32,000 nt of DNA from Polynucleobacter sp. es-EL-1 (GTDB taxonomy: Bacteria; Pseudomonadota; Gammaproteobacteria; Burkholderiales; Burkholderiaceae): NCBI RefSeq assembly GCF_018687975.1, contig NZ_CP061310.1:1493584-1525583 (forward strand), read 5' to 3'. The translations under genes and the position numbers were made by a program. Below the pieces are notes generated by a model that worked only from the letters and a program-made list of their open reading frames with translations, searched no databases and was not told where the DNA came from. Below are positions 6,162 to 31,652 of the stretch, piece after piece (the stretch's first letter is position 1; the number at the start of each line of letters is the position of its first letter).

Positions 6162-6170
6162 TGAGATTCT

Positions 6171-6191
6171 TGGTGGCCCGGGGCGGAATCG
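6171..6191 (-). repeat. tRNA-Phe 3'-terminal fragment, copy A (att-like scar)
   Basis: tggtggcccggggcggaatcg is identical to the first 21 nt of the tRNA-like element at 6743. The preceding tct is also shared. Similarity stops after the T-loop. Confidence 0.7.
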
Positions 6192-6742: not shown

Positions 6743-6815
6743 TGGTGGCCCGGGGCGGAATCGAACCACCGACACAAGGATTTTCAATCCTTTACTCTAC
6801 CGTCCGCTACTGGCC
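6743..6815 (-). pseudogene. tRNA-Phe(GAA)-like element with an intact 3' ~55 nt and a decayed 5' acceptor/D-arm
   Basis: The reverse complement is ggccagtagcggacggtagagtaaaggattgaaaatccttgtgtcggtggttcgattccgccccgggccacca. The anticodon arm (aagga-ttGAAaa-tcctt), T-arm and ACCA end are canonical. The 5' acceptor pairs at only 5 of 7 positions, the D-stem cannot form, and the element is 3 nt short. Confidence 0.6.
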
Positions 6816-6856: not shown

Positions 6857-7007
6857 GAAAAATGTGTAGTAATTGCCTACACACTTTTGAGCATACCCAG
6901 CGTTACTTAAAGTAACGCTCAAATGACCAAACCAATCATTTTCTTCACAAGCCTATCTTTTTGTGACGTTTAGGTCCTGTTTAGGTTCTCTGGTTATGAG
7001 AGCAGAT
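6857..7007 (+). repeat. ~150-bp direct repeat, left copy (L), containing palindrome 1
   Basis: Aligns by eye along its whole length with 14742-14892. The best block is ctttttgtgacgtttaggtc..gtttaggttctctggttatgagagcagat. Confidence 0.8.
6899..6919. repeat. island palindrome copy 1 (agcgttacttaaagtaacgct)
   Basis: Perfect 21-nt palindrome read directly from the sequence. Confidence 0.95.
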
Positions 7008-7193
7008 ATCCAAAGAAAACCACTAGGATTTCAAGAGCTTACGTCGCCTGTTTATCGGTGTGTGAGTATTTGTGTGACTAATTTAAACAGAGCAGAAGAA
7101 ACACTGACTCACTCTTTGGTTTTCTAAACCACAGGATTTTTGGAGCAACCATCTAACACCTCGTTGCTCCAAAGTACTTTTTGAGTGGTTAAT

Positions 7194-7216
7194 AAGCGTT
7201 ACTTAAAGTAACGCTT
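7194..7216. repeat. island palindrome copy 2 (aagcgttacttaaagtaacgctt)
   Basis: Perfect 23-nt palindrome with the same 21-nt core. It lies 126 bp downstream of the end of the metal-efflux operon. Confidence 0.95.
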
Positions 7217-10700: not shown

Positions 10701-10848
10701 TGATGGTGACAGTAGGCTTATTCAGATCGGGAAAGACATCCACAGGCATCTTGCTTAAGGTGTAAGCACCATAGACCATAGATATAGCACTGAGCAAAAT
10801 CACTATCATGCGATTTTTTAAGCTGAAATCTAATAACCAAGTAAACAT
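7726..10848 (-). CDS. heavy-metal efflux RND transporter, CzcA/CusA family
   Basis: 1040-aa ORF with a 12-TM RND layout, two large periplasmic loops and the TM4 motif GGLAIAIGGLVDDAVVDVENV, typical of HME-RND pumps. It is flanked by adaptor and outer-membrane factor genes. Confidence 0.9.
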   Translation of the reverse strand: MFTWLLDFSLKNRMIVILLSAISMVYGAYTLSKMPVDVFPDLNKPTVTIMTEAGGMASEEVEQLITFPLETAMNGLPGVEAIRSVSSAGLSFIYVTFDWSVDIYRARQMVSERLSSMDGAIPDGIVSRMGPISSIMGEIMQIAIPIDESKISSMQVREYADWVLRPRLMAIPGVAQVIPIGGQVRQFQVQPNTRRMAELGLSILQIEDALRGYSANTSGGFLESNNREYLIRHIGRTSSLEDLKNIAVSNRNGQTILLRQVADITFAPAVKRGDAGYEGGPAVILGVQKQPSADTVVLTKKIESAIAELKQGLPTGMEAPKVTFRQASFIDASISTLEGKLIGASIFVAVVLYFFLGTIRPVLISLTAIPVSILLTALVFKYFGLSINTMTLGGLAIAIGGLVDDAVVDVENVIRRLRANLDKASLDQLSPLAIVRAASLEVRTGIIYATAIIVLVFIPLFALPGIEGRLFVPLGIAFIVSTLASLLVSVTITPVLCFYLLPSMQSLRDHDTKIVTWLKSHYEFQLSRLLAAPKKPLMYAFASVIVAAASVPFMASSFLPPFNEGTLLIGLRLNPGVSLSESAGLASQAEKLVRQVPEVTYVGRRSGRAELDEHAEGVHVSELDVGLKPAGDLDRSMSEIQADIRSRLVNLPAAIAIGQPISHRIDHMLSGVRSQIAIKIFGDDLDVLRSQADLLRSKLAGIEGLVDLEIEKQVLAPQIKVRIDYDKAAQYGVSTSQIMATLQGMVEGERLSQIIEGNRRFALVIKLPDSARNLEGLADILIDTPNGKIPLSKIASIEDGDGPNQISRDGGKRRIVLSANASKRALSDIVADIRTVISNQTLPEGYFITLDGQFKAQEEASKVIGLLSIGSFLLMFAVLNNRYKSIRLSLMIMSNIPLAMVGAVIGLWISGQPLSIAALIGFITLAGISVRNGILKISHYLNLMQSEGESFSLAMIIRGSIERLSPVLMTALVTAFALAPLLFEAERPGTEILHPVAVVIFSGLLSSTLLDTFLTPAMFWLYGKKASEIALSNMKTNEVF

Positions 10849-10858
10849 GTCTTAGTCC

Positions 10859-11899
10859 TTAACGAATTTGATTGATGAGGGATGCCCCATCAGTAATGAC
10901 TCGTTCACCATCTTTAATACCGCTAGTGATAACAATGTTCTGACCATCTAAAGGCTCATATATAACTGTTCTGGGCTCAAATATTTCTGGGGACTTTTTA
11001 ATCCAGACAATTGTTTGGTTCGAGCTGCTTTTGACTAATGATTTTGAGGGCGCCTTTACTCCAGTGACCTTGCTATCGGTATTTACAAATACTCGAATGG
11101 GCTGACCTATGGGTAAAAATTGGAGATCATCCGATTTAGCAGAAAAAGTAAGAGGCAAGGCTTGCTCTCTGAGGGTCTGTCCACCACCGAGATACTTGAG
11201 CTCAATCACTTTGCCATTAACATCCACTTTGCCATCAGCAATGTTCTTACTCAGATTTGAGTCGTAGGCAAGCGCTTCTATTAATAGCTTGGATGGATTA
11301 ACAACCTCAAAGATTAGATCTCTTGCTTGTACTACTTGGCCAGACACGACACCCGTAGTAGAAATAATTCCGCTGACTGGGGCTCTTAATTCTTCATTAG
11401 CAACCGCGGCTTCTGCCTCTTCAATAGTCTTACGTGGAACCGTATCGCTAAGATCTCGCAAACGCTTTAGTCGACTTTCCGCAAGTGATCTTGATTTTCC
11501 TGGGCCAGCCTCTGGCGTTACATACGCCAAGACATCGCCTTTACTAATCTTCTGTCCGGGCAATGGAAAACCAGCTGGTCCCGGCGTAATACGGCCAGCA
11601 ACAATCGCTTGCACCTTACCGCCAAAGTTAGGATCCATGATGACTTTTCCAGCTAAATCATAGGTTTTGGCATATTCGCCGAACTGGCCAGGAGTTGTCA
11701 TCACGTGTAACTGGCGTTGCGCAGGCTTGGGAATAAAAAGACTGCCGTCCGACTGTCTTTTCGGAGCGTCGCCTTGAACTTGGGATACTTCCGACTCACC
11801 ATGACCCGGCCCAGCATGAACCTTAAAAGCAAATAGCGCCACAGATAAACCAATAAGGATAAAGGGGCGAAATACAAAATCTCTATGTTTGCGATTCAT
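10859..11899 (-). CDS. efflux RND periplasmic adaptor subunit (CzcB/CusB-like)
   Basis: I chose the start at the ATG at 11899-11897 (MNRKHRDFVF...). It forms an ATGA overlap with the stop of the upstream gene. It has a TM/signal segment followed by HAGPGHGESEV, and lipoyl motifs (ISKGDVLAYV ... LRAPVSGIIS). Confidence 0.8.
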   Translation of the reverse strand: MNRKHRDFVFRPFILIGLSVALFAFKVHAGPGHGESEVSQVQGDAPKRQSDGSLFIPKPAQRQLHVMTTPGQFGEYAKTYDLAGKVIMDPNFGGKVQAIVAGRITPGPAGFPLPGQKISKGDVLAYVTPEAGPGKSRSLAESRLKRLRDLSDTVPRKTIEEAEAAVANEELRAPVSGIISTTGVVSGQVVQARDLIFEVVNPSKLLIEALAYDSNLSKNIADGKVDVNGKVIELKYLGGGQTLREQALPLTFSAKSDDLQFLPIGQPIRVFVNTDSKVTGVKAPSKSLVKSSSNQTIVWIKKSPEIFEPRTVIYEPLDGQNIVITSGIKDGERVITDGASLINQIR

Positions 11900-12465
11900 A
11901 CCCGCTCCTTGATTTGTTTGATTAATTTTTTTGCATGCGTCATCAACACCTCTTTCTTGCGATAAGAAAAATAGGCAATTGCCATCAAGAGGCTGAAATA
12001 AAGCAAGATTTTTATTGCTGATTTCCAAGAGATCAATGAGGAGTGCTCAAAGGAACTTAGATCGATAGTGGCTGCTAGTATGTCGGTAACATCATCATTA
12101 ATCGTGATGGTGATCGCAGTAGGCTGATCCTTAATTTTATTTTTTAGGCGAAAGAGATACTCTCCATCACCATGAGGCTCTGAACTAATTTTAGAGCCCT
12201 CAAGCTCAATTTCAACCTTAGCTCCTTTGACCAATTCATTGGAGGAGTAGCGATCTAGGTAGAGCGTGATTTCCTTACCATTGATCACTCCTACCGCCTC
12301 ATAGAGATCAGATTCAGCATAAAAGCGAGGTGATGTTTGAGTTTGTGCAGTGGTGGGTTTTTCCTCCCCATGACCAGGGCCTGCATAAGCTGCCGATGCA
12401 ATTGTCAGAGATAGCGCAATTAATAGTTTTGACGCCAACTGACTATATTTGTTCAATAAATTCAT
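11896..12465 (-). CDS. membrane-anchored periplasmic protein of the metal-efflux operon (unknown function)
   Basis: I chose the start at MNLLNKYSQ (12465), just after the OMF stop at 12479. The signal peptide ends AAYA and the mature N-terminus is GPGHGEEKP. It has a C-terminal TM helix (ILLYFSLLMAIAYFSY). Its stop overlaps the adaptor start. Confidence 0.6.
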   Translation of the reverse strand: MNLLNKYSQLASKLLIALSLTIASAAYAGPGHGEEKPTTAQTQTSPRFYAESDLYEAVGVINGKEITLYLDRYSSNELVKGAKVEIELEGSKISSEPHGDGEYLFRLKNKIKDQPTAITITINDDVTDILAATIDLSSFEHSSLISWKSAIKILLYFSLLMAIAYFSYRKKEVLMTHAKKLIKQIKERV

Positions 12466-12478
12466 AGTTAAAGTGACC

Positions 12479-13762
12479 TTACTCTGGTAACAGGCCAAGG
12501 GCCTGTCGTAAATTTGAAACTGAGACTGCGTAATTGATTTTTGCAATCGCAGCCTGTCTATTTGCATCCACTGCTTCTAGCTCAATACGTAGTCTTGTGG
12601 GCAAATCGGTTTCACCAAAGCGAAATGATTTGTCAAAAAATTGACGTGTTTCATTGGCTAGGTTAGACCTCTTATCTGCAGCGCCAAGCTTCATTTTTGC
12701 CGACTTCACCAAAGCCACATTTGATTCCACATTACTTAATGCAGACTCTCGCTCATAGGACAATCGAACCTCTGAATCGACCATCTCAGCTGTAGCGCTG
12801 GCCAATCTATTGGTATTGCGAGCATCAGAGCCAAAAGGAATTCTTAATCCAACAGCAACTGATTGCTGATAGGGAACGCCATAGACTTCACGGCCCTTAG
12901 TAGTCCATACTTGCAATTGTGGGGATGCCCGAGTTTGAGACTTTGCTAAGTCAACCGCTTTTTTAGCAACCTCTAACTGGTCTACAAGTGCTGCAACGAT
13001 TGGCAAACTAGAATCTAGTCCTGACAGGTTTTCAGGAACCTTGGGTAACGGTTCAATATTTTTAGCAATGTCACCGAATTGAATTTTCTTGAGATACTCA
13101 CTTCCCAATAAAGAACGCACCCTTTGCTCAGCATTAATGACGTTGGCCTGCGCTTCGACCAAAAAAGCTTCTGATGATGCGAGAGCCCCATTAGCCTGAT
13201 GAAGATCTGCGCGAGATAAGTCTCCAGCCTTAAATCTCTTTTCAACATCAAGAGCTAAGCTCTTTGCATTCTCATTTCTGCGTAGCGCTAAATCAGACTC
13301 AATTTTTGATTTCTGGTAATTCCAATAGGCATCCCTTACTTCGGCCGCAACTCTCAATTGGGATAGATAGTATTGAGACAAAAGCTTTTTATATTCTGCA
13401 TCCGCTAAATTAATTGAGCTTGACCGCTCATTCCATAACCAAAGGGGGATATCTAAACCCAGTATGGTTTCACTAGCGCCTTGATTACTGTTAGTTCTAT
13501 CGGTCTTTTGCGACACTTCCACCGAAGCTGGGCTTACCAAAAGGCTGCTAGCAATTTTTTGCTTAGCAAGCGCGGCCTCTACTCGATACTGATAGGACTT
13601 ATAGTCAGGTTGGCGCTCCCATGAAGATTCATAGAAGGACTTTAAGGCCGACTCGGCTTTGCGCTCGCCATTAGCCAGCGCTATTGGCGACCCCAATATA
13701 AAAACCAATCCAGTAAATTGAATGACGCAGCGACGAACTACGCCCGAATACTCTCGCAACAT
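12479..13762 (-). CDS. TolC-family outer-membrane efflux protein (CzcC/CusC-like)
   Basis: 427-aa ORF with a signal-like N-terminus and two repeated OEP-type coiled halves. It sits in the first position of the OMF-adaptor-RND cluster. Confidence 0.8.
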   Translation of the reverse strand: MLREYSGVVRRCVIQFTGLVFILGSPIALANGERKAESALKSFYESSWERQPDYKSYQYRVEAALAKQKIASSLLVSPASVEVSQKTDRTNSNQGASETILGLDIPLWLWNERSSSINLADAEYKKLLSQYYLSQLRVAAEVRDAYWNYQKSKIESDLALRRNENAKSLALDVEKRFKAGDLSRADLHQANGALASSEAFLVEAQANVINAEQRVRSLLGSEYLKKIQFGDIAKNIEPLPKVPENLSGLDSSLPIVAALVDQLEVAKKAVDLAKSQTRASPQLQVWTTKGREVYGVPYQQSVAVGLRIPFGSDARNTNRLASATAEMVDSEVRLSYERESALSNVESNVALVKSAKMKLGAADKRSNLANETRQFFDKSFRFGETDLPTRLRIELEAVDANRQAAIAKINYAVSVSNLRQALGLLPE

Positions 13763-14742: not shown

Positions 14743-14892
14743 AAAATGTGCAGTAATTGCCTACACACTTTCTAGCATCCCCAACCGTTACTTAAAGTAA
14801 CGCCTACAACTCCAAACCCAACCTTTAGTCTCAAAAGCTAGCTTTTTGTGACGTTTAGGTCTAGTTTAGGTTCTCTGGTTATGAGAGCAGAT
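14742..14892 (+). repeat. ~150-bp direct repeat, right copy (R), containing palindrome 3
   Basis: Aligns with 6857-7007 and starts at the last base of the DUF3147-like stop codon. Confidence 0.8.
14786..14802. repeat. island palindrome copy 3 (17-nt core cgttacttaaagtaacg)
   Basis: Same core as copies 1, 2, 5 and 6, but the outer two positions are mutated. Confidence 0.9.
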
Positions 14893-17246: not shown

Positions 17247-18206
17247 ATGGCTACAGCACCTAAAAAAACCACTATTCCAGGGCGAACCACCAAAGATTGG
17301 TCGACTAAAGGTATCCAGGGCTATGTCATGCTGATGGTGGAATTTTTGCGGATTAGCCCAAGCTATGCCTTAGCGCATGAGATTAGAACTAAGAAGATAG
17401 CCCCATCAAAACAAGCTCCACTCATTCTTAAGCTTTACCGAGATACGGATAAACCGCTCACCAAACAAGCAGAGCGCGATGTAATTAGTGACTTCGCGCG
17501 AGTGCTATCGACGTACGATGAATACGGCGACATATTCCAATGTTCATTTGAAGAGTGGTGGGCCAATCGAGGATTAGCTATGTATGGATCACCCCATAAC
17601 AAACCCATCGTTAAGAAGATAGCCGGCATCAGTCAAGGAGAGTCTTATGAACCCCTCTTCGGACGAGCGCTAGAGCATTACTTTAATAAACAGCGAGCCA
17701 GTGAGGGCAATCCACCGGCTTTACTGCTGGCAGTTCCTCTTGGGCAACCTAAAAGGATATTACTCGCGTATATCTCTAAACTCATTGATGCTGAGGCAGT
17801 TCCTTTACCTATTAAGTCCCAAAGGGCTATCAAGCCACTTGTAGCCAAACGCTTACGCTCAGCGCCACTCTTTATCATGTTGCGCATATTGATGGCTAGA
17901 GCCCAGTACCCTCAATTACCGTTATGGCGGATTGGGAAGCATGCGGGCGTGAGCCAAAAATATGCCCAAACAGAAATTACACTCAATAAAAAACGCTTAC
18001 AAGATGCTGACGCTAAGATTCATTTGAGTATTTTGACAAGTCGATATCTACTCAAGGCCAAATGCGTTGCAGAGCAGGCGGCGCGAGGACAGTTTCCTAG
18101 TTCGGCCAAATTGGTCCTGCCCGCATTTGATCTGGATGCTGTTTTTATGCGATTACAGGCAAGGTATCCGCAGCTTAAAGCAGGTAAACCTACAAAATCA
18201 AAGTAG
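17247..18206 (+). CDS. hypothetical protein (319 aa), possible DNA-binding protein
   Basis: Long basic ORF, divergent from the 17125 operon. It has an HTH-like segment (LPLWRIGKHAGVSQKYAQTEI). It converges end to end with the small recombinase gene. Confidence 0.6.
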   Translation: MATAPKKTTIPGRTTKDWSTKGIQGYVMLMVEFLRISPSYALAHEIRTKKIAPSKQAPLILKLYRDTDKPLTKQAERDVISDFARVLSTYDEYGDIFQCSFEEWWANRGLAMYGSPHNKPIVKKIAGISQGESYEPLFGRALEHYFNKQRASEGNPPALLLAVPLGQPKRILLAYISKLIDAEAVPLPIKSQRAIKPLVAKRLRSAPLFIMLRILMARAQYPQLPLWRIGKHAGVSQKYAQTEITLNKKRLQDADAKIHLSILTSRYLLKAKCVAEQAARGQFPSSAKLVLPAFDLDAVFMRLQARYPQLKAGKPTKSK

Positions 18207-18207
18207 G

Positions 18208-18795
18208 CTAAATCAGCTCCACCGCATTACGCAGGATATCGGGACGAGTATCAATATAGCGCTGCGTGGTGGACATTTGACTGTGACCTGCCAACTGCAT
18301 CATGACCCTTACTGACACCCCCTTCTCACTGAGTCGTGTCAAAAAGCCACGGCGACCACTATGGCTAGTAGCGCCATTAAGCCCTGCTTGACGATATAAG
18401 CCGTTAATCACATGCGTTAAGGTGTTTGGTGTGAATCCCAAAGCCCTTTGTGTGGGGAACAATGGACGATTCATGTCTTTTGGTGGATGCGCTGCGATAT
18501 AGATGGCAAGTTCCTGTTGCATACGCTCTGATAACAGCACTACCCTACTTTTAGAGCCCTTGGTCTGATTTGCAGCTAAGTGAATCTCGCTTAACACCTG
18601 TTTATCCGCGTTTAAAACGTCGCTGTAGCGCACACTTGCTACTTCACCTATTCGCATACCCGCCCAGTGCGTTAACAGCAGTATTGCGCGATTACGCACT
18701 GCTGCTTTGGTGCTCGCTGCGTAGTCTAGTGCTCGCTGTAATTCTGCATCACTTAATGTTTTTGCTTGTGCCATGGTCTCTCCTTGTATTGCCAT
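18208..18795 (-). CDS. short tyrosine recombinase (catalytic domain only)
   Basis: 195-aa ORF carrying the R...K...HxxR...H...Y set: AGMRIGEV, TKGSKSRVV, HSGRRGF, LAGHSQMSTTQRYI. It has no N-terminal arm or core-binding domain. Confidence 0.8.
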   Translation of the reverse strand: MAIQGETMAQAKTLSDAELQRALDYAASTKAAVRNRAILLLTHWAGMRIGEVASVRYSDVLNADKQVLSEIHLAANQTKGSKSRVVLLSERMQQELAIYIAAHPPKDMNRPLFPTQRALGFTPNTLTHVINGLYRQAGLNGATSHSGRRGFLTRLSEKGVSVRVMMQLAGHSQMSTTQRYIDTRPDILRNAVELI

Positions 18796-22297: not shown

Positions 22298-23644
22298 TTA
22301 AACCATCCGCAGCTCTCGTGCTGCCCGCTTCCTGCTAGGATAGTTATCAGTAGCCTTGCCATCCGCCTCAATCAGCTTTCTAGTATTTACACCACGTAAT
22401 TGCTCAATAGCCTGTATTACCTGTAAGTGGCTATAGTGCCGCTCAATCATTAATACACTTGTACCCATTTGTTTTGCTAGCGTATGAATAGGTACCATAT
22501 CGTGAGTAAGTGCTAATGTGGCATAGGTATGGCGTAGGCTATAGAACACACGCTTTTGATTGGTCTTGGGATCTATTAGTAAGCCATGGTCTGATAAGAA
22601 GTTATCAAACATATGGTTTAAAACATCACTTAAATCTCTACCATCTTTAGCTCTAAAGATGTAGTCATCATTGGTGGGTTTAATCAGCCCAGCTAAAGGA
22701 TCTTTAATTGAGCTAGCTACCCCATAATTTCTAAGCGCAATACGCTCTAGCACCTTGACGCTAGGTAGTCGCCCAATAATCTGCCTTTGCCCTGTTTTAC
22801 CTTTTACTGTCATTTCACAACTTCTATTTAAGTTATGAATTTCAATAACTTCGCCTTCTTCATCCAATTGATCTGTCACGGTGCTAATGGGGTTCATCAT
22901 GAAGCGGATTTGCTTCCATTTCATATCAAGCAACTCAATGCCTGGCCTTGCTCCTGTATCTACCAGCATTTCCACATAATCTCTCAGGATCTCACGGCGC
23001 TCACGCACATCCCGAGTTCTACCTGATTCTATGTATGGACCTAGTAGTTTTAGTAAGGCTCTGAGTTCATGCAGCTCAAATGCTGGGCGACGCACACTCT
23101 CTTTAGTCTTGCCATCTAACTTGGGACGATTGCTCTCGGTTAAGTAACCCCGAACAATGGCTTCATCAAATACCCTGTTAAATGCAGCGTTTTGAGTCTT
23201 ACGATTGCTATTGGATAGCGCTAATCCATACTTGGCTTCACGGTCATCGTAGTACTGCTGCAGGGCGTCGTAGTCAATATTGGTTATGAGTCTTTGCCCA
23301 AGACTAGGTATGAAGTGCTCATTAATGATGCGGATGTAGTCTTTGTAGATTGACTTACCCAAGCCACCCTTCAAGTCTCGCTCCATGCGATCAATTGCCA
23401 GCATGGCGATATCTTTAAAGCGTTTGGTTACTACTGGAATACCGGAGCGTTTACGAATCTCTGCCTCCACTAATAGCTCTTTAGCCTTATTAACTGCCAA
23501 GTCAAGCTGGGTTTCTTTAGTAGTTGCTCGTATCCACTTGTTATCCACCTTATAGCGACATTGCCATACGGCGCTATGCTCGCGCTGATAGAGGGTTAGG
23601 TTACGGTGTATGAGTTGATGTGTACTTTCTTTTTTAATTGCCAT
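22298..23644 (-). CDS. tyrosine-type site-specific integrase (full length, 448 aa)
   Basis: Catalytic motifs LVDTGARPGIELLDMKW, YSLRHTYATLAL and GTSVLMIERHYSH. It has an N-terminal arm-type region (WQCRYKVDNKWIRATTKE). Confidence 0.85.
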   Translation of the reverse strand: MAIKKESTHQLIHRNLTLYQREHSAVWQCRYKVDNKWIRATTKETQLDLAVNKAKELLVEAEIRKRSGIPVVTKRFKDIAMLAIDRMERDLKGGLGKSIYKDYIRIINEHFIPSLGQRLITNIDYDALQQYYDDREAKYGLALSNSNRKTQNAAFNRVFDEAIVRGYLTESNRPKLDGKTKESVRRPAFELHELRALLKLLGPYIESGRTRDVRERREILRDYVEMLVDTGARPGIELLDMKWKQIRFMMNPISTVTDQLDEEGEVIEIHNLNRSCEMTVKGKTGQRQIIGRLPSVKVLERIALRNYGVASSIKDPLAGLIKPTNDDYIFRAKDGRDLSDVLNHMFDNFLSDHGLLIDPKTNQKRVFYSLRHTYATLALTHDMVPIHTLAKQMGTSVLMIERHYSHLQVIQAIEQLRGVNTRKLIEADGKATDNYPSRKRAARELRMV

Positions 23645-23756
23645 ACATATACTTTAGCTTCAGAGCCTAGGCTAGAGCAACCAAGTTGGCTGAAAAATAG
23701 AGGTCAATTTAGCCAAAAGAACTTGTGGCTAAGAGTGGAGTTTATTGGGGGGGATG

Positions 23757-23777
23757 AGCGTTACTTAAAGTAACGCT
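23757..23777. repeat. island palindrome copy 5 (agcgttacttaaagtaacgct)
   Basis: Perfect 21-nt palindrome 113 bp upstream of the integrase start, preceded by a G7 run. Confidence 0.95.
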
Positions 23778-23818
23778 TGGGATGTTGCAAAAAATCAAGA
23801 TTAATTCTATATTAAAAA

Positions 23819-24238
23819 ATGAGCTTACATCTCAACTACTTAAAACCTCCATCTAAAGCGCATCGAGATTATGCAAAAGCTCTTTATGATAGAAGGAATG
23901 AGGCAATTTATATCCCAAAGGTTAATGTTGAACTACCGAATTGGAAGCCCCAAATAAATAGATGTCACGACAACTGCGCCGAGTGGTATTTAAACAATCC
24001 AAATTGCGAAATAGTTCATGGATGGCTTTCTATAGATTTAACTGCTATCGGTTTTTACAGATTTATTGCCCATTCCGTAATTAAGAATTTAGATGGCTCA
24101 TTTATAGACATTACGCCATCCTTAATTCAAACCAACTATCCATTTCTTAAAGGCAGCCTTGATTCGGATCAGTATTTTGAAGCAACAGATGTTTTACATG
24201 AGCATTTTGGAGACTCAAATCTAGATCATTGGATCTAA
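23819..24238 (+). CDS. hypothetical protein (139 aa)
   Basis: ORF only. Its stop codon overlaps the hsdR stop (convergent 4-nt overlap). Confidence 0.45.
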   Translation: MSLHLNYLKPPSKAHRDYAKALYDRRNEAIYIPKVNVELPNWKPQINRCHDNCAEWYLNNPNCEIVHGWLSIDLTAIGFYRFIAHSVIKNLDGSFIDITPSLIQTNYPFLKGSLDSDQYFEATDVLHEHFGDSNLDHWI

Positions 24239-27200
24239 CCAAGGACTGCCCTTCCAGCAGCCTCAGGATAAGCCTCGTATATATGCTCAAACATCGCTGA
24301 ACATTTGTCTTGGTACAAATCTTTTGTATACGCCTCGGGCAAGCCATCATCTAAGGCATCTTGAATGGCAAGCTTTAACTGTGATCTAGCAGTCTCTTTT
24401 TGACGCCAGTTCAACACCAGCAAATTTTTCAATTTTGCAAGTAATTCACGAGAAACCTTCTTTACCTCTGCTTTCTCAGCATTCGTTAAATCAGGAGCAG
24501 GCCTTGTCAAAATATCAAAAATAACAAGCTCTTCCTCTGACATATTCTCGCGAACGTGTCTCTCTTCTTCAGCATTTAAAGTATTTGTAAAGTTTAGTAG
24601 CTCTGCAAATATTTCTTCAATAGTCCGACTACCAGTGTTGTAACTTTCAATGAGTTCTTCAAACTTCTCAGAAAAATCAGCCCTCGTTTTATTGGCTTGG
24701 ATAAGCTTTTCCAATTTAGAGTGAATGGCGGCCTTAAGAGACTCTAAGTCTGTATTTTTATGCTTTGACTCCTTAAACTTCTGGGCAAGTGCTTGAAAAT
24801 TAATTTTTGAGAGGTCTAATGCTGCTGGTCCTTCTTTACGAATTGCCAAGCCAGTAATTGATTCATCCAAAATATCACTGATACCACCCATTATCTTTGA
24901 GATGTCTGAAGGGTTTGGATTTAATCTGACACGAATTGCCTCAACTAAGGTGGATAGACATACAACGATATTAAAAAACTCTAGAGCAGCTGGATCAGGC
25001 TTAATCGCTTTGTATAGAGTATTAACAAGTCGCTCATGACCAAATAACTGTCTACGCAAGGACTCCGGAGAAATCAGACTATCAATTGCATCCTCAATAC
25101 TTTGCAACCTCTCAAAACTTCCATCTGCTAAAGAAATTATGCGCTCCAGATTGACCCCTTTTGTATTGCAAAAGTCAAAAGCCGCCTTAATGGCAATTTT
25201 CAGATCCCTTACTAATTGCTGCTTATCTTTAACTGGATTTGTGCCACCACCACCAACTCCATAAATCGCTAATGCTTTTTCCAAAGAAGCAAATACATTT
25301 GCGTAATCAACAATCATGCCGCTGTGCTTGTCTGGGAAAACCCGATTGGCGCGTGAGATGGTCTGCATCAGCGTGTGATTACGCATCGGTTTATCCAAAT
25401 AAACAGTGGAGCAACTTGGCGCATCAAAGCCTGTCAGCCACATCGCACAAACAAATACCAACCGAAGTGGATCTTTGGAATCCTTAAAGCGCTCATCTAG
25501 CGGAGGCTGAGAATCATTCATGCGTCTACGATGCGGCTCAATATCTAAGCCCAACTCATGCATTTTAGAAATTTCGTTCTGGCTTGGCGAAACAATGACT
25601 GCCATATCAGTTGTCTTTAAAACATCTAATCGCCTTCTCAACTCGGCCAATTGAATATCACGCTGCGCTTGCTTAGGTGTTGTTTCGCCTGCTTCAGCAG
25701 CATTCTGTAATAGTTTAATCACCTCTTCTACTTTTGTAGTCTCTTGCTCCCAGGACTTTTTAACTTTATTAAAGGTCTTTAGGGCGGTAGCCTTGTCAAT
25801 GGAAACAACCATTGCCTTTCCTAAAAAACCTCGACCTAAAAAATGGGAAACAATATCTCGAGCTACAACCTCTAATCGATCATCTCTTGTAATGATGTGA
25901 TATTGCCTAGAAAGTTCACGCTCTAGTCTTGATTCTTGCTCGGGATCTAGTTCAGCTTCTTCAATTAAGCGGTATAAATCTTCATTTAAATCTGGATTAT
26001 TCAGGTGCAACTCAGGGGTGCGATTTTCATAAAATAAAGGGACGGTAGCTCCGTCCTCAACGGACTGCTGAAAATCATATATAGAAACATAATCACCAAA
26101 AACTTCTTTTGTTCTCTCTTCTCCAGCGATCAGTGGTGTTCCTGTGAATGCCAGAAACATGGCATTAGGCAAGGCCGATCTCATATTCAGCGCTAGGGTG
26201 TCATATTGACTCCTGTGTGCCTCATCAGTCATAACAATAACGTCAGATCGATCACATAATAAATCTGGAGATTGAAATTTTTGAACTAGAGTAAAAACAT
26301 ATCTATGATTTCCTCGTAGCAACTCTCTTAACTCTGCGCCACTAGATGCATGACATTTATCGCCTTCGGCTTGAGTTACTGCACCTACAGCCTTAAAGGT
26401 TCCAGCAATTTGATTATCTAACTCTACTCGATCCGTGACAACAGCAAACGTCCAGTTACCCACAAGTTTACGCAACACCTTTTGAGCAAAGAAAACCATT
26501 GAGAAGCTCTTTCCGCTACCTTGGGTCTGCCAAAAGACACCGCCTCTACCGTGACCTAGTTCCCGAGCCTCAAGCATTGATGCAATTGCATTATTAACAC
26601 CAATGAATTGATGATTCTGCCCTAGTATTTTTACTAAACCCGCTTTATGTTCCGAGAATAAAGTAAAGTTTTCCACCAAATCCAAAAGTCGCCCTTTGTC
26701 ACAAACACCTCGGAGCATTACTTCAAGAGAAACTCTTCGTGGCTCATCTTCACGCTCAATACGCTTCCACTCAAACCATCGCTCCCAATCAGCAGTCAAA
26801 GATCCAACGCGACTATCGGATCCATTTGAGGCAATCATTAGAGCGTTGTACCAAAATAAACTAGGTACTTGATCTTTGTAGTGAGTTAAATTTTCATCAA
26901 AAGCATTCCTGGCTGGAACACCCGGTTTCTTTAACTCAATGACGACCCAAGGCAGCCCATTCACAAAACCGACTAGGTCAGGTCGGCATGTATACAGCGA
27001 ACCCGTCACACTAAACTGGCTTACAAGCAAGAAATCGTTACTCTCAGGGGTTTCCCAATCAATAACCTTAATTCTTATAGTCTTTTGACCGCCATTCTCA
27101 GTATCTGGAATTGAAACTGGAACACCTTCTTTTAAGAATTCATAAATTTCACGGTTTGCGGCAGCTAATCCCATTGTCGATCTATCTCTAACAATTTCAT

Positions 27201-27429
27201 CAATAGCCGAAGTTATTGATGAAGGTTGTATATCGGAATTATTAAGCTTTATCAAAGCTGATCGTAGTCGGGGAAGTAACACAACCTCACTTTTAGTGCT
27301 TCGGCCAAAACACCCATCGCCAGAAAATACCTCATCGGATGCATTTAGTATCTCCCATCCCAAGGAAGCAAATAAATTAATAGATGGCTGCTCAATTAAT
27401 TGATCTTCAGAATAGGCATGGGCATTCAT
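24235..27429 (-). CDS. hsdR: type I restriction endonuclease, R subunit
   Basis: 1064-aa ORF with Walker A QTQGSGKSFS, a DEAH box (MTDEAHRSQ), SF2 helicase motifs and a long helical C-terminus. It is downstream of hsdM-hsdS. Confidence 0.9.
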   Translation of the reverse strand: MNAHAYSEDQLIEQPSINLFASLGWEILNASDEVFSGDGCFGRSTKSEVVLLPRLRSALIKLNNSDIQPSSITSAIDEIVRDRSTMGLAAANREIYEFLKEGVPVSIPDTENGGQKTIRIKVIDWETPESNDFLLVSQFSVTGSLYTCRPDLVGFVNGLPWVVIELKKPGVPARNAFDENLTHYKDQVPSLFWYNALMIASNGSDSRVGSLTADWERWFEWKRIEREDEPRRVSLEVMLRGVCDKGRLLDLVENFTLFSEHKAGLVKILGQNHQFIGVNNAIASMLEARELGHGRGGVFWQTQGSGKSFSMVFFAQKVLRKLVGNWTFAVVTDRVELDNQIAGTFKAVGAVTQAEGDKCHASSGAELRELLRGNHRYVFTLVQKFQSPDLLCDRSDVIVMTDEAHRSQYDTLALNMRSALPNAMFLAFTGTPLIAGEERTKEVFGDYVSIYDFQQSVEDGATVPLFYENRTPELHLNNPDLNEDLYRLIEEAELDPEQESRLERELSRQYHIITRDDRLEVVARDIVSHFLGRGFLGKAMVVSIDKATALKTFNKVKKSWEQETTKVEEVIKLLQNAAEAGETTPKQAQRDIQLAELRRRLDVLKTTDMAVIVSPSQNEISKMHELGLDIEPHRRRMNDSQPPLDERFKDSKDPLRLVFVCAMWLTGFDAPSCSTVYLDKPMRNHTLMQTISRANRVFPDKHSGMIVDYANVFASLEKALAIYGVGGGGTNPVKDKQQLVRDLKIAIKAAFDFCNTKGVNLERIISLADGSFERLQSIEDAIDSLISPESLRRQLFGHERLVNTLYKAIKPDPAALEFFNIVVCLSTLVEAIRVRLNPNPSDISKIMGGISDILDESITGLAIRKEGPAALDLSKINFQALAQKFKESKHKNTDLESLKAAIHSKLEKLIQANKTRADFSEKFEELIESYNTGSRTIEEIFAELLNFTNTLNAEEERHVRENMSEEELVIFDILTRPAPDLTNAEKAEVKKVSRELLAKLKNLLVLNWRQKETARSQLKLAIQDALDDGLPEAYTKDLYQDKCSAMFEHIYEAYPEAAGRAVLG

Positions 27430-27439
27430 TAGGAAAAGC

Positions 27440-28651
27440 TCAATTATTAATTTGGATTGATAATAATTTCAGAAGTAAAAGATCACGCATCTTACTTAGC
27501 TTAGAAATTTGCAAAGAAAGTGTAAGAATCTGCCTTAGCATTGGCGCAGCAACCCTCTCAAACTCAACTATCAAACTTTCTGGGGGTGAAATAAACTGCA
27601 TAGCTTTAACAGCCGATCCAGCATGCAAAATAGTTGTTCCTTTTGCATGCGCCCTTATCGTATCTTGAATGCTATCAGAAAGAAGCAAGTTATAGGCAAA
27701 GCTCCACCCCAGCCTACTCTCATCTTTAATCACAAGTTTCCGTATACCAGTTGAATACGAGCCTGACAAACCGATCCTCACAAGCCCAACAGATCCATCT
27801 AGAGTTAAAGCAATATCATCTCGATTTAAATACTTATTCCTAGCTAAAGCATGTGGAATGAATAAATCGCTTTCACGTTTACTAAGATCTCCCACCCGGA
27901 GAAACTTGACCAATCCTTCCGCCCACTCATCCATGTAAGAGTCGGATCCTGGTTCAATGCCCCTCTCAAAATCAGCAAAATCTGATACTTTTCGTGCCTC
28001 CCATCCGGTAGGTAGTGATGTCTCCCCTAAAGGGGTTGCTTTATGTTCAACATATCCTGGATACCTAAAGTTTACAAACCACTCGCGATAAATTGACTGT
28101 GACATTTCTTCAAGGATTTTAATGCGACGGCCATTATTAGCGATAAGATTGTCGAAAGAAGAAAGAATTTCACCAATACGCTTTTGGTCCTCAATGGGCG
28201 GCGTATAGATGGGGAATGATAATAACTTATCTAAACTCAAGTTATCTTGTGTAGCCCCCCTTGATACTGATAGGAATTTGTTACGCATCAAGTCCAATGA
28301 GTACTTTACAAAATGCAAATCAGATTTATGAGGATCAGGAATAAATCCTACAATACTGTCAGGAAAATAAGCTGGAAACTTTAAGATTGCAGTCTTTGCT
28401 GTATTAGCCCCAGCGATAGTTATGCATAACGTATTAGCAGGCCACTGCTTGCTCTGCAATATTCCAAAATCGCTATAGGTATGCAAATATTCGGTGATGT
28501 AAGGATCTGCAGTCATAATATCTGCAGTCTGTATGAAGGGGTGAACACCGCCGTAAAGGCGCGAATCATTTCGCGGGCGATGCCTTGATTTTCCCCTGCC
28601 AACATAACCGAGTTCATCAAGCCGCATCGGCTTCCATGATTTATCCATCAT
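27440..28651 (-). CDS. hsdS: type I R-M specificity subunit
   Basis: 403-aa ORF with two target-recognition halves separated and followed by conserved helical spacers (QKRIGEILSSFDNLIANNGRRIKILEEM ... LSKMRDLLLLKLLS). Its start overlaps the hsdM stop. Confidence 0.85.
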   Translation of the reverse strand: MMDKSWKPMRLDELGYVGRGKSRHRPRNDSRLYGGVHPFIQTADIMTADPYITEYLHTYSDFGILQSKQWPANTLCITIAGANTAKTAILKFPAYFPDSIVGFIPDPHKSDLHFVKYSLDLMRNKFLSVSRGATQDNLSLDKLLSFPIYTPPIEDQKRIGEILSSFDNLIANNGRRIKILEEMSQSIYREWFVNFRYPGYVEHKATPLGETSLPTGWEARKVSDFADFERGIEPGSDSYMDEWAEGLVKFLRVGDLSKRESDLFIPHALARNKYLNRDDIALTLDGSVGLVRIGLSGSYSTGIRKLVIKDESRLGWSFAYNLLLSDSIQDTIRAHAKGTTILHAGSAVKAMQFISPPESLIVEFERVAAPMLRQILTLSLQISKLSKMRDLLLLKLLSIQINN

Positions 28652-30276
28652 TATTCGGCAGTTCTTAATATTTCGGAAATATTTAATGAGATATTTTTTT
28701 CTATTTCCCGCGCTTCCAGATTTAAAAATTCAAGTTCTTCACTTAGGAACCCAAGTTGATCGTTAAAATCTTTACTACTAGTCTCATCACCAAGAGGGGC
28801 TCCAACGTAAAGCCCTGGATTTAACGACCATCCTTGTGCTTCTATATCTGATAATGTAGCCACCTTACATAAACCCAAAATATCTTTATAGACAGGCTTG
28901 GCACCGAAAATTTCTTCAAGCTTAGCTTTAAGCTCTTCACCACCTTGCGCTAAGTCAACTTTATCGCCGCGATATAGCTTAACAATATTTGATATAAAGT
29001 CTATTTGATTTTTCGTCCAGTCCCTATGAGACCTATCAATTTTTCTGTAGATGTGACGAGCATCTATGAAGAGTACAGTATTAGCCCTTGGAGTTTGCGA
29101 TTTACCTTTATCCAAAAACCAAAGCATACATGGTAGTGTCACTGTGTAAAACATATTAGATCCGACAGATATCATCACATCAACAACCTTATCCTGAAGG
29201 AGTTTCTCCCTCAGTTCGCGTTCAGACGATCTTGCGTCAGCAGCAGAATTTCCCATAACAAATCCCGCTCGCCCCTTAGCATTGAGGGCTGAATAAAACA
29301 TCTGAATCCATATGTAGTTTGCGTTATCTGCTCGAGGTAACCCAAATGGAAATCTCCGACCACCTCCCACCATCTCTTTAAGTCGCTCCTTGTCCACTGA
29401 ATCAACATTAAAGGGTGGATTTGCAAGAACAAAATCGAACTGCCCAACCGCTCCGTGAGGGTCATCATAATAACTATTGGTATTGCCGCCGTGACGTATA
29501 TCACCCTCCAAGCCATGAATCGCCAAATTCAAACGACATAAGCGACCAGTGTCATCAGTTTTTTCAACGCCAAAAATTGACAGTTCTGCAGTTGGATTCT
29601 TTTGATGTTCCGAAACAAAACGTGCAGACTGAACGAACATTCCACCTGAGCCACATGCCGGATCAAGAATGCGTCCATGATATGGCTCAATAATTTCTGT
29701 TAGTAATTTCACAATGCTTGAGGGTGTATAAAATTCACCACCGCCCTGCCCTTCGGTCATAGCAAATTCACCAAGGAAGTACTCGTATACGCGTCCGAAT
29801 GCATCAAATTCCAAACTTACAGGTATTTCAGAAACTTTTTTTAGCAGCCCTTTAAGTAACGAGCTAGTAAAGAGGTTGTAAGTTTTTGGAAGCACTCCAG
29901 CCAAACGAGGGTTATGCTTTTCAATTTCACGCATTGCCTCATTAACTTTCGCACCAATATTCTCTGACTCAGGCAAAGTTAGCAAATAGTCATATCGAGC
30001 TTCTGGGCTCAGATAAAGAATTCCTTCGGCCAAATATGCAGTAGGGTCTTCGGATCGACTAACTCTCCTTGGAGAGGAGCCTTCTTTTCCTAACTGCTCA
30101 TGTTTAGAGGCGAATCTAGCCTCTGCAAATCTCAAAAATATCAATCCCAGTATTGGCCCAGCATACTCCTGGGTTTTCAATCCAGAATTTGCTCGGAAGT
30201 CATCCGCAGCATCCCATAGATGTTTCTCCAGGGTTGCATTATTCGCATCTTTTTCAGAAGCTGCAATCCAACGCAT
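28651..30276 (-). CDS. hsdM: type I R-M N6-adenine DNA methyltransferase subunit
   Basis: 541-aa ORF with SAM motif LDPACGSGGMF, catalytic NPPF (FVLANPPFNV) and an HsdM N-terminal helical domain. Confidence 0.9.
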   Translation of the reverse strand: MRWIAASEKDANNATLEKHLWDAADDFRANSGLKTQEYAGPILGLIFLRFAEARFASKHEQLGKEGSSPRRVSRSEDPTAYLAEGILYLSPEARYDYLLTLPESENIGAKVNEAMREIEKHNPRLAGVLPKTYNLFTSSLLKGLLKKVSEIPVSLEFDAFGRVYEYFLGEFAMTEGQGGGEFYTPSSIVKLLTEIIEPYHGRILDPACGSGGMFVQSARFVSEHQKNPTAELSIFGVEKTDDTGRLCRLNLAIHGLEGDIRHGGNTNSYYDDPHGAVGQFDFVLANPPFNVDSVDKERLKEMVGGGRRFPFGLPRADNANYIWIQMFYSALNAKGRAGFVMGNSAADARSSERELREKLLQDKVVDVMISVGSNMFYTVTLPCMLWFLDKGKSQTPRANTVLFIDARHIYRKIDRSHRDWTKNQIDFISNIVKLYRGDKVDLAQGGEELKAKLEEIFGAKPVYKDILGLCKVATLSDIEAQGWSLNPGLYVGAPLGDETSSKDFNDQLGFLSEELEFLNLEAREIEKNISLNISEILRTAE

Positions 30277-30330
30277 ATTTTTACTTTCTGATGTATTTAT
30301 TGTTTTCTACTAGTAGTGTAGCTTGCCCTA

Positions 30331-30351
30331 AGCGTTACTTAAAGTAACGCT
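30331..30351. repeat. island palindrome copy 6 (agcgttacttaaagtaacgct)
   Basis: Perfect 21-nt palindrome between the hsdM start and the tRNA-Ile terminator. Confidence 0.95.
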
Positions 30352-30352
30352 C

Positions 30353-30380
30353 AAAAAAATACCAACCCGAAGGTTGGTAT
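30353..30380 (-). terminator. rho-independent terminator of the tRNA-Ile gene
   Basis: On the minus strand, ataccaacc-ttcg-ggttggtat is followed by ttttttt, 10 nt after the CCA end. Confidence 0.75.
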
Positions 30381-30389
30381 TTTCATTTC

Positions 30390-30682
30390 TGGTGGGCCCA
30401 CCAGGACTTGAACCTGGGACCAAAGGATTCCGGTTTGTGTAGCTTTCACTACTCCCTGGACTATGCCTTCATCATATCGATTGCTCGACTTAGATGGGTG
30501 CCGTCTAGTCTCTACACCTTCAACAGCACTTTCACGCTGAAGCTTGGCTCGGCGTTAGCTTGTGCAGCTTTTGGCTACATTTAGCTTTCTCCGAATTTGA
30601 CACCATCCCTTATGCAGTTTCCACGCATAAGGCACAACTTTCGCTATGAGTCCTCTGCTCTAACCAACTGAGCTATGGGCCC
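30390..30682 (-). tRNA. tRNA-Ile(CAU, lysidine type; Met not excluded) interrupted by a group I intron
   Basis: The 5' exon (30682-30646) is gggcccatagctcagttggttagagcagaggactcat. The 3' exon (30429-30390) is aatcctttggtcccaggttcaagtcctggtgggcccacca. Joined, they give a canonical 77-nt cloverleaf: 7-bp acceptor, anticodon loop ctCATaa and an encoded CCA. G1-C72 excludes an initiator tRNA. C4-G69, C5-G68 and G27-U43 match the TilS determinants I recall for E. coli tRNA-Ile2, which it closely resembles. Confidence 0.85.
30430..30645 (-). ncRNA. group I intron (Azoarcus tRNA-Ile-type, subgroup IC3-like), 216 nt, no ORF
   Basis: Intron RNA blocks gtgcc...gggatggtgtcaaattcgg, aacgccgagccaagcttc and gaaggtgtagagactagacggcaccca..ctaag match the Azoarcus ribozyme core as I remember it. 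It is inserted directly after anticodon CAU, with a gtg guide sequence 10 nt into the intron, and it ends in G (..aaccgg). Confidence 0.85.
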
Positions 30683-30876
30683 TAAAACTGTTTTTACTAC
30701 ACACCTTGCTGCTGGTGTTTGCCGCTTCAAAACCACACTAAAACCGCATTTACTACACACCTCGGTTTTTGCTTCGGTGTGTAAGCGGTGTGTAGTGAAT
30801 TTATACCGCCTAATTCACCACTAACCTCTTGAATCTATTGAGGTCTTAACTACAAGACCCCTAGGGCTTCTTTCTT

Positions 30877-30913
30877 ATGAGTCCTCTGCTCTAACCAACT
30901 GAGCTATGGGCCC
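30877..30913 (-). pseudogene. orphan duplicate of the tRNA-Ile 5' exon
   Basis: 37 nt are identical to 30646-30682, or 39 nt with one flanking t on each side. No matching 3' exon follows. Confidence 0.85.
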
Positions 30914-30985
30914 TATGCCAACATTGTAATTGAAGGGTCAAGCCACCCCTTATCTAATTGGTGGAATTGTATTTACATGCCAATT

Positions 30986-31011
30986 AGATATACATTAATA
31001 TATGTATATCT
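30986..31011. promoter_or_regulatory. palindromic operator upstream of the antitoxin gene
   Basis: agatatacat-taatat-atgtatatct has 10-bp perfect arms and ends 2 nt before the aaggag RBS at 31013-31018. Confidence 0.55.
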
Positions 31012-31027
31012 AAAGGAGTCATTGATC

Positions 31028-31258
31028 ATGATCGTTTCCAAATGGGGCAATAGCCTAGCTATTCGACTACCTTCCCAAGTGGTGGAATTTTTGAAGCTTA
31101 AGGAAGGGGATGATATTGAGGTTCAGGTCGCCGATAAAAAACATTTTCATATTAGAAAAAAACCATCTCCTCAAGAGAGGATAGAGGGTCTGAGAAAATT
31201 TCGTGGACGAATGCCTGCTGATTTTCACTTTGATAGATCCGAACTGAATGAACGCTAA
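31028..31258 (+). CDS. vapB: AbrB/MazE/SpoVT-family antitoxin (VapB-like)
   Basis: I chose the ATG at 31028, 9 nt after aaggag. MIVSKWGNSLAIRLPSQVVEFLKLKEGDDIEV is the classic swapped-hairpin antitoxin motif. It overlaps the PIN gene by 11 nt. Confidence 0.8.
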   Translation: MIVSKWGNSLAIRLPSQVVEFLKLKEGDDIEVQVADKKHFHIRKKPSPQERIEGLRKFRGRMPADFHFDRSELNER

Positions 31259-31652
31259 GAAAATATTCTTTGATACCAATACCCTGCTTTACCTACTGTC
31301 ATCGGATAACAAAAAAGCAGATTGGGTAAGCAAAAATCTACAGCAGCACAATGTGATTAGCGTTCAAGTGCTCAATGAATTTACATCAGCTAGCCTGAGA
31401 AAAATAAAAATATCCAATGCTGAGCTAGATGAGTTTTTGGATCTATTTACATCCACATTCAATGTGAGATCTCTAGATATAGATACCTTTGAAACTGGAC
31501 TAATGGTCTCCAGGCGCTATGGATATCAACACTATGATTCGATGATTATTGCTGCAGCACTGCAGGCGGGTTGCGAAAGACTGTATTCAGAAGATATGCA
31601 GCATCGACAGGTAATCGATAAAAAACTACAAATCGTGAATCCCTTTGCATAA
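31248..31652 (+). CDS. vapC: PIN-domain toxin (VapC-like ribonuclease)
   Basis: 134-aa ORF with the PIN acidic residues in context: FFDTN, VLNEF, YDSMI, YSEDM. Confidence 0.8.
   Translation: MNAKKIFFDTNTLLYLLSSDNKKADWVSKNLQQHNVISVQVLNEFTSASLRKIKISNAELDEFLDLFTSTFNVRSLDIDTFETGLMVSRRYGYQHYDSMIIAAALQAGCERLYSEDMQHRQVIDKKLQIVNPFA

Follow-up and report, generated by a model that had tools for sequence, protein, structure and literature searches.

The window that we analysed is a 32,000-nucleotide (nt) stretch of DNA from Polynucleobacter sp. es-EL-1 (RefSeq assembly GCF_018687975.1, contig NZ_CP061310.1, positions 1,493,584 to 1,525,583), and the subject of this work is a transfer RNA (tRNA) gene, tRNA-Ile2(CAU), that lies on its minus strand, is split by a group I intron and is preceded by a copy of its own 5' half. 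All coordinates are positions in this window, and labels of the form L149 denote comparison loci, which were all picked either by the intron core or by the attR pattern described below. Exon 1 (30682-30646, minus strand; 37 nt, GGGCCC...GACTCAT; GGGCCCATAGCTCAGTTGGTTAGAGCAGAGGACTCAT) has the anticodon CAU as its 3' end, with the last nucleotide, U-1, forming the 5' splice site; the same exon 1 sequence is present at many Polynucleobacter loci. The intron (30645-30430, minus strand; 216 nt) runs from AGCGAAAGTTGTGCC to CACAAACCGG, opening with AGCGAAAG and closing with CCGG, and exon 2 (30429-30390, minus strand; 40 nt, AATCC...CCA; AATCCTTTGGTCCCAGGTTCAAGTCCTGGTGGGCCCACCA) encodes the CCA end. 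A terminator-like hairpin and then a T run lie 3' of exon 2 (30353-30389, stem 30356-30383, minus strand). The preliminary description of this locus had placed two tRNA halves 216 nt apart, one of 37 nt ending in CAT and one of 40 nt running from AA to CCA, and these coordinates were verified on the minus strand; the three blocks that it quoted, gggatggtgtcaaattcgg, gccgagccaagcttc and gtgtagagactagacggcaccc, are present as well, the last being the reverse complement of plus strand 30497-30518. It had also proposed a covariance-model search and an intron-aware tRNA search, both of which found the gene: the Rfam model Intron_gpI (RF00028) matched 30658-30437 over model positions 1-253 of 253 with 52.8 bits (gathering score 50, E = 7.2e-11), and ARAGORN with introns allowed reported a tRNA(cat) with intron (38,216), whose spliced 77-mer is a perfect cloverleaf with the anticodon CAU. 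As had been anticipated, standard tracking of tRNA genes fails here: ARAGORN with default settings missed the gene in the window, an unrelated tRNA-Phe being its sole call, and the Rfam tRNA model missed the split gene too. Chance would hardly produce such matches, and the locus is confirmed as a tRNA-Ile(CAU) gene split by an Azoarcus-type group I intron.

The P1-P9 structure was drawn by hand on the window sequence, and every pair of the core P3-P8, including the P3/P7 pseudoknot, could be drawn on the intron. The internal guide with the motif gtg, described earlier as able to pair with the CAU exon end, forms P1: CAU/AGC (C-3, A-2, U-1, A1, G2, C3; the slash marks the splice site) pairs with GUUGUG (G8-G13) across a GAAA loop, with a U-1·G11 wobble at the splice site. 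P2 is capped by a GAAA loop (L2), P3 is formed by GGUGUC with GGCACC, and P4, P5, P5a, P6 and P6a come after it; P7 pairs G(A)GACUA, with a bulged A, with UAGUCC, P8 bears a CUAAG/UAUG receptor motif, P9.0 pairs GG with CC and P9 is again capped by a GAAA loop (L9). The terminal (omega) G named in the preliminary description is nucleotide 30430. Folding of the single sequence with RNAfold recovered P1, P2, P3, P4, P5/P5a, P6, P8, P9.0 and P9 in the minimum free energy structure (z = -4.0).

An exact scan for the 23-nt core GGTGTAGAGACTAGACGGCACCC over one genome per GTDB species found it in 115 stretches, 86 of which are CAU tRNAs with an intron according to ARAGORN; intron lengths are about 188-223 nt, the shortest values belonging to loci with a misplaced splice junction. 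These CAU tRNAs come mostly from Betaproteobacteria (Polynucleobacter, Massilia/Duganella, Rhodocyclaceae, Neisseriales, Methylophilaceae), in whose genomes the intron-bearing gene usually stands directly after rpoD. Intron and tRNA are 100% identical to those of the window in Polynucleobacter sphagniphilus and in a Polynucleobacter metagenome-assembled genome (MAG), the intron is 93-99% identical in many further species-representative genomes, and the complete 2.3-Mb chromosome OZ248351.1 has, besides fragments, four diverged copies of the intron-tRNA whose introns match that of the window at 81-99% identity. The statement that bacterial tRNA group I introns are rare was therefore too strong, given the scan counts and the total of 3453 introns that Williams 2020 (bioRxiv 10.1101/2020.01.27.920355) gives for the four classical bacterial classes. 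At 13 loci in Alphaproteobacteria and Chloroflexota the same 23-nt core lies in introns of other tRNAs (Arg, Thr, Asn, Lys, Tyr and others by the ARAGORN calls), for which the called splice junctions look unreliable. Six viral contigs of IMG/VR (L121-L126) carry phage tRNA(CAU) genes with this intron family, one of them adjoining a tRNA-Leu(UAA); the family therefore appears to travel in phage tRNA sets too, and these phage genes showed no link to an integrase. Searches of plasmid and phage collections returned exon matches and two short matches to the intron core, and nothing else.

Conservation of the structure was analysed in a MAFFT alignment of 54 non-redundant relatives (alignment A1). 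The hand-drawn structure is 93.4% paired in this alignment, compared with 30-41% after a shift of the 3' partners by 1-3 columns, and both sides have changed at 34 of the 67 pairs: 356 double-change cells were observed against 97 ± 9 in shuffles, with 0 of 500 shuffles reaching 356. Covariation is found in P1, P2, P5, P5a, P6a, P8, P9.0 (with GC, CG and AU variants) and P9, and compensatory changes occur in P4 as well. The C-G, A-U and U·G pairs of P1 are present in 54/54 sequences while the P1 extension pairs covary, and the column of the terminal G is invariant. P3 and P7 are invariant too, which says nothing either way because half of each lies inside the 23-nt search pattern. Such a pattern is the signature of a ribozyme under purifying selection, and the assignment of an Azoarcus-type intron after the CAU of tRNA-Ile2 stands on the RF00028 match, P1, the terminal G and this covariation together.

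The intron is inserted between nt 5 and 6 of the anticodon loop, that is between U36 and A37, with CUCAU before it and AA after its terminal G. By its loop position 5, U at -1, omega G and IC3 subgroup it belongs to the Ile2.5Ug class of Williams 2020, one of the four classical types of group I intron in bacterial tRNA genes, each of them IC3. The Leu.3Ug introns belong to the same ribozyme subgroup, also sit in a tRNA anticodon loop and usually have no homing endonuclease, but differ in tRNA, loop position and phylum. With the Azoarcus pre-tRNA-Ile the window gene shares the host gene tRNA-Ile(CAU), insertion after CAU, the P1-P9 helix set with P9.0, GAAA loops capping P2 and P9, a P8 receptor of the 11-nt type, an intron free of open reading frames (ORFs) and the long invariant blocks GGAUGGUGUCAAAUUCGG, GCCGAGCCAAGC and GAAGGUGUAGAGACUAGACGGCACCC. 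An approximate query that we take to be the Azoarcus ribozyme aligned with the window intron from end to end at 77% over 206 columns. The differences are a window intron of 216 nt rather than 205 nt, a 5' exon of 37 nt rather than 39 nt because its D loop is shorter, one P4 pair that is A·G and an AT-richer host. The published Azoarcus precursor comprises a 39-nt 5' exon, a 205-nt intron with P2-P9 and P9.0 and a 40-nt 3' exon (PMC13168695), a 39/205/40 layout that many of the core-bearing loci reproduce exactly; these loci served as the main reference for the comparison. Contrary to the proposal that the P9 region is longer than in Azoarcus, columns 201-257 of the alignment (J8/7, P7', P9.0, P9 and the 3' end) are gap-free in all 54 sequences, and the 11 nt by which the window intron exceeds the 205-nt relatives are spread over the P1 loop, P5a and the P8 loop. 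The comparison with Azoarcus concerned the intron and its exons; at the window locus an attachment-site scar and an island context are visible in addition.

This context begins with an exact 40-nt copy of TA, exon 1 and A at 30915-30876 (minus strand), 231 nt upstream of the live exon 1, which the preliminary description did not contain. The corresponding remnant of the tRNA-Ile2 5' half (30913-30875, minus strand; 39 nt, exon 1 plus AA), which on the strength of the repeat, the junctions and the relatives we read as the left attachment site of an island (attL, B-O-P'), ends with the full anticodon loop CTCATAA (core, 30881-30875) and then diverges into GAAAGAAGCCC; the attL pattern at this site is GGACTCATAAGARAGA. 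With 18.1 bits and E 0.84 in the Rfam tRNA model it is not a tRNA but a dead half, and no second intron was found after it, this 18-bit partial tRNA match being all that was detected. Williams 2020 mentions "ghost exons" that ARAGORN calls on either side of the real ones; the remnant may be an example, and the remark suggests that such remnants had at least been noticed before. The 192-nt spacer between the remnant and the live gene (30874-30683, minus strand) is conserved in about 30 loci and is read as the P' arm of the attachment site of an integrase: it contains a tandem CACTACACACC-GCTTACACACC at ~30797-30775 and three copies of GGTGTGTAGTAAA in inverted and direct orientation (including 30762-30738 and 30706-30682). 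The tandem GCTTACACACC x2 recurs at +85 to +105 from the core in Polynucleobacter, Sterolibacterium, a Nevskiaceae MAG and others, and other tandem arm repeats are found at equal distance from the core in Massilia/Duganella and Gulbenkiania/Dechloromonas. Such repeats at a fixed distance from the core have the look of arm-type integrase sites. A decayed intron and a miniature inverted-repeat transposable element were also considered for the spacer and dropped, as the same spacer is joined to two different left flanks at CTCATAA.

Four types of junction share the 7-nt core CTCATAA in the relatives. The attB form (B-O-B') is an intact intron-free tRNA-Ile2 11-13 nt after rpoD (L083, L212), and the rpoD site of L215 likewise holds an intron-free tRNA-Ile2. 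The attL block, consisting of the 5' half, CTCATAA, the spacer and the intron-tRNA, follows rpoD in the window and in about 17 Polynucleobacter species. In the attP-like form (P-O-P'; at least 11 loci) the block begins at CTCATAA after an unrelated arm that has TTGCTTACACA repeats and ends in ...TCTGCT, and in the attR form (P-O-B'; L003, L031) CTCATAA connects this same P arm with the tRNA 3' half and the native terminator; at L003 the hairpin 3' of the displaced half is the same terminator-like hairpin as in the window. The attR pattern TCTGCTCTCATAATCCTTKGGTC was found in at least 120 metagenome stretches. Lined up, these are the forms of one site-specific recombination system, with the anticodon loop as its overlap. 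A complete unit of 3.07 kb is present in L149, with the order rpoD, 5' half, CTCATAA, P', intron-tRNA-Ile2, terminator, 2.4 kb of cargo, P, CTCATAA and 3' half: since the intron-tRNA lies between attL and attR, it is here inside the inserted DNA, and excision would restore an intron-free gene. In at least 12 lineages, with differing P' arms, a remnant that ends in CTCATAA precedes the intron-tRNA by 145-214 nt, and L205 is nested (5' half, core, P', 5' half, core, P', intron-tRNA).

Within the window, the candidate enzyme of such an island is a tyrosine recombinase/integrase of 448 amino acids (aa) (22298-23644, minus strand) from a large family named integrase, relatives of which at 55-65% identity carry PF00589. 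Homologues of it lie directly downstream of the intron-tRNA in 12 loci, similar genes also follow displaced tRNA 3' halves, and L215 has a relative that is 35% identical. Between the intron-tRNA and the integrase, directly downstream of the former, sits a type I restriction-modification (R-M) operon (24235-30276, minus strand), identified from its ORFs and the Pfam matches of identical proteins: hsdM (28651-30276), hsdS (27440-28651) and hsdR (24235-27429). The operon is probable island cargo. Three public contigs carry an identical hsdM, and each of them breaks off inside or beside the intron-tRNA, which fits a repeated element. P-arm sequence is found twice in the window: a full P arm ending in CTCATAA (7100-6994, core 7000-6994, minus strand) agrees with the arm at the attP-like site of L075/L114 and at the attR of L003 and is joined to another right flank, CCAGAGAACC, rather than to a tRNA 3' half, and a shorter P-arm end with core (14896-14879, core 14885-14879, minus strand) is joined to the same right flank. 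The sequence that follows these P-arm cores is CCAGAGAACCTAAAC. This flank, X' (14878-14743, minus strand), is a direct repeat of 6859-6993 with a tandem ACCTAAAC and a palindrome resembling repetitive extragenic palindromic (REP) elements; BLAST aligned 14743-14892 with 6859-7007 (151 nt, 85%), each copy being preceded by the P-arm end and CTCATAA. The same P-arm/right-flank junction is present in L042, and the flank may belong, as an arm, to another element of a tandem array, or it may represent a secondary site.

We consider it very probable that the window holds a functional tRNA-Ile2 with an IC3 intron on the left end of an integrated island, where it replaces a split intron-free copy. 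This reading is built on the sequence architecture, on the conservation and covariation of the intron and on the attL/attP/attR/attB junction set together with one complete island in relatives. The alternative that fares best, although we regard it as unlikely, is that the intron is native and vertically inherited, with islands integrating beside it, so that the tRNA would be host DNA and not cargo. Several observations are in its favour. In other genera about one intron locus in two lacks a remnant within 700 nt, the intron-tRNA following rpoD without one in many genera: there the intron may be native, and islands may have captured it from such hosts, so that transfer could have run in either direction. 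Islands in L015, L059, L069 and L077 duplicate the 3' part of the intron and exon 2 and would thus have evolved against an intron-containing target. In the window itself there is no attR with a tRNA 3' half and no second exon-2 copy in 1-30000. Three further points sit badly with the island reading: the junctions at 7.0 kb and 14.9 kb end in a different flank, the integrase is not adjacent to the tRNA but 6.7 kb away, and the matches of its own sequence in Pfam and NCBIfam are weak. Against a native intron, however, stand the L149 unit with its intron-tRNA inside the inserted DNA, the attP-like junctions with intron-tRNAs away from rpoD, the several diverged copies per genome and the intron-free rpoD site of L083, L212 and L215.

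In L015, L059, L069 and L077 the displaced fragment comprises the intron 3' part (from J8/7 or P9), exon 2 and terminator, a few kb downstream of the live gene. These fragments suggest another class of island, the attachment sequence of which includes intron DNA.

An improbable explanation of the upstream copy is a local tandem duplication, possibly serving as an alternative 5' exon, rather than an integrase scar. The two copies are 100% identical over 40 nt and only 231 nt apart, and the guide could pair with the CAUAA of the upstream copy, from which splicing would give the same tRNA. The copy nevertheless stops exactly at the 3' edge of the anticodon loop, and its right flank is joined elsewhere at the core to an unrelated left arm, which is itself joined to the tRNA 3' half. 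In L016, L023 and L043 remnant and live gene represent different tRNA-Ile2 alleles, which excludes a local duplication there; the complete attL-attR unit of L149 and the nested remnants of L205 likewise speak for recombination at the core.

That the intron is a decayed relic in a tRNA pseudogene, with the working tRNA-Ile2 elsewhere in the genome, is very unlikely. Three features of the locus detract from a functional intron: the RF00028 score is only 2.8 bits above the gathering score, one P4 pair is an A·G mismatch, and a scan of 30300-31000 found no sigma-70 consensus promoter. The thin margin is likely due to the composition of the Rfam group I seed, which, according to Williams 2020, has no bacterial sequences, and the A·G is common to 28 of the 54 relatives. 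All core helices are intact, the intron is identical or nearly so in other species, substitutions are overwhelmingly compensatory, a sign of purifying selection for the fold, neither U-1·G nor the terminal G ever varies, and the other exon-1 copy within the window is a dead half.

As for the identity of the host gene, the E. coli genes that match the tRNA best (83-84% along its entire length) bear the annotation tRNA-Ile and stand downstream of rpoD-mug, just as the window gene lies downstream of rpoD, and with G1-C72 paired the tRNA is not an initiator. The spliced tRNA has C4-G69 and C5-G68, which are reportedly determinants for TilS (Ikeuchi et al. 2005). On these grounds an Ile2 rather than a Met tRNA is supported, namely the likely orthologue of ileX next to rpoD. 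An elongator or initiator tRNA-Met is very unlikely: this label comes from ARAGORN, which assigns it by the anticodon CAT and cannot separate Ile2 from Met, while the intron lies after loop position 5, the Ile2.5Ug site, and the known fMet intron lies at position 2 (Williams 2020).

The functional tRNA-Ile2 on an integrated island leads to the following scheme, in which splicing is expected from established group I chemistry, and lysidine modification and integrase action at CTCATAA are expected from the respective families. The precursor would be transcribed as a single RNA, and the guide GUUGUG would pair with CAU/AGC to form P1 with U-1 in the U·G wobble. A free guanosine in P7 would attack after U-1, the terminal G (30430) would then take the same P7 pocket, P10 would be formed by the exon AA and the guide UU, and ligation of the exons would give the 77-nt tRNA, which TilS would convert to the AUA-reading lysidine form. 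At the level of DNA, a tyrosine integrase of the island would recombine at the 7-nt CTCATAA of an intron-free tRNA-Ile2, leaving the old 5' half stranded by rpoD and followed by the P' arm, the intron-bearing replacement tRNA-Ile2, the R-M cargo and the integrase; the 448-aa protein is a candidate for the enzyme that acts at the core, and the island may still be mobile. Recombination between the two exon-2 copies could subsequently delete the cargo and fix the intron allele beside the 5'-half scar, as in the window. Dependence of the cell on splicing of the intron is plausible, the sole other exon-1 copy within the window being the dead 5' half.

Tentatively, we propose that this endonuclease-less intron spreads not by homing but together with a complete replacement tRNA-Ile2 beside attP on islands, and that it confers partial site immunity on the locus or the island. 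The island as vehicle is the well supported part of this model, and the case for immunity is weak. Immunity could arise from the position of the intron between the two halves of the CTCATAA core, which would make the incoming gene a less suitable target of the same integrases. In its favour, the 5' exon is still in place at 99 of ~100 intron copies, and the array of nested remnants in L205 ends in an intron-bearing gene; against it, the islands of L166 and L237 have the P' arm of the window and carry an intron-free complete tRNA, and the look of L056 is that of a P arm joined to the intron. A firm claim that the intron gives immunity was rejected on account of L166, L237 and L056, and a tendency is the most that can be maintained. 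At L056 (minus strand, ~130 nt upstream of the core at 1333) intron and exon 2 are present with no 5' exon: non-tRNA DNA, GACCTGTCTT, ending in ...CCTGTCTT, stands before CTCAT, which is followed by AGCGAAAG. This may be a P arm fused to the intron, the product of integration into an intron-containing gene. A related idea exists for archaea, in which, according to Randau & Soll as cited in PMC4390854, an intron in the tRNA gene removes the integrase target; it was put forward for protein-spliced archaeal introns and split genes, whereas the intron of the window is a ribozyme from a bacterium, with mixed evidence for protection.

With the tRNA-gene islands catalogued by Islander/TIGER (PMC4383910) the islands described here share the tyrosine integrase, the crossover inside a tRNA gene at the anticodon-loop sublocation, the core common to attL and attR, the tandem arrays and cargo such as R-M. 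Those islands normally restore the tRNA gene from island sequence (PMC4383910), and L212 and L215 are classical islands in which the tRNA is restored by fusion at the same core. In the window, by contrast, restoration by fusion is not found: GAAAGAAGCCC follows CTCATAA, so the tRNA sequence is not carried on into the P' arm and the 5' half remains dead; what follows is a second, whole tRNA gene, which in islands of this type usually has a group I intron and lies 145-214 nt downstream. The island is a variant of the tRNA-targeting family and not a standard member. We found no description of an island-borne, non-restoring replacement tRNA in the literature searched, a search that covered part of the relevant work; Williams 2020, in the part seen, maps introns without a link to island-borne replacement genes.

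Several further features of the window are recorded here. A second, short tyrosine recombinase (195 aa, PF00589, 18208-18795, minus strand) stands back to back with a 319-aa ORF of no named family, and the pair (17247-18795) is also present in L001. Between rpoD and the remnant lies a VapBC-like pair on the plus strand (30977-31652), comprising a MazE/AbrB-type antitoxin (30977-31258) and a PIN toxin (31248-31652); the pair also occurs in L044, L045, L050 and L059, whereas L086, L108 and L001 lack it and have rpoD directly against the remnant. The 151-nt direct repeats bracket a resistance-nodulation-division (RND) efflux operon (7726-13762). A REP-like perfect palindrome, AGCGTTACTTTAAGTAACGCT, recurs between genes at 30331-30351, 6899-6923, 7193-7215, 23755-23779 and 14786-14803, and also in many related loci. 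The tRNA-Phe(GAA) gene (6743-6815, minus strand) reaches only 32.8 bits in Rfam, its 5' half showing mismatches in the acceptor arm and the D arm, and a 28-nt copy of its 3' end lies ~570 nt downstream at 6164-6191: the repeat looks like a second att-type duplication, and the tRNA-Phe may be a hybrid or damaged.

By itself, the intron is one more member of a well-known and abundant ribozyme class. The family is nonetheless a routine feature of freshwater Betaproteobacteria, in which default tRNA callers miss an essential gene. If the intron-bearing tRNA-Ile2 is island cargo, this would explain the wide and patchy spread of an intron that has no homing endonuclease, as well as the several diverged copies per genome and the assembly breaks at the locus. 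Programs for finding islands that expect the tRNA to be restored by fusion would misplace the boundaries of such islands. The idea that a tRNA intron guards against an integrase would gain a testable bacterial system, in which the same site occurs with and without the intron in a natural series of attB, attL, attP and attR.

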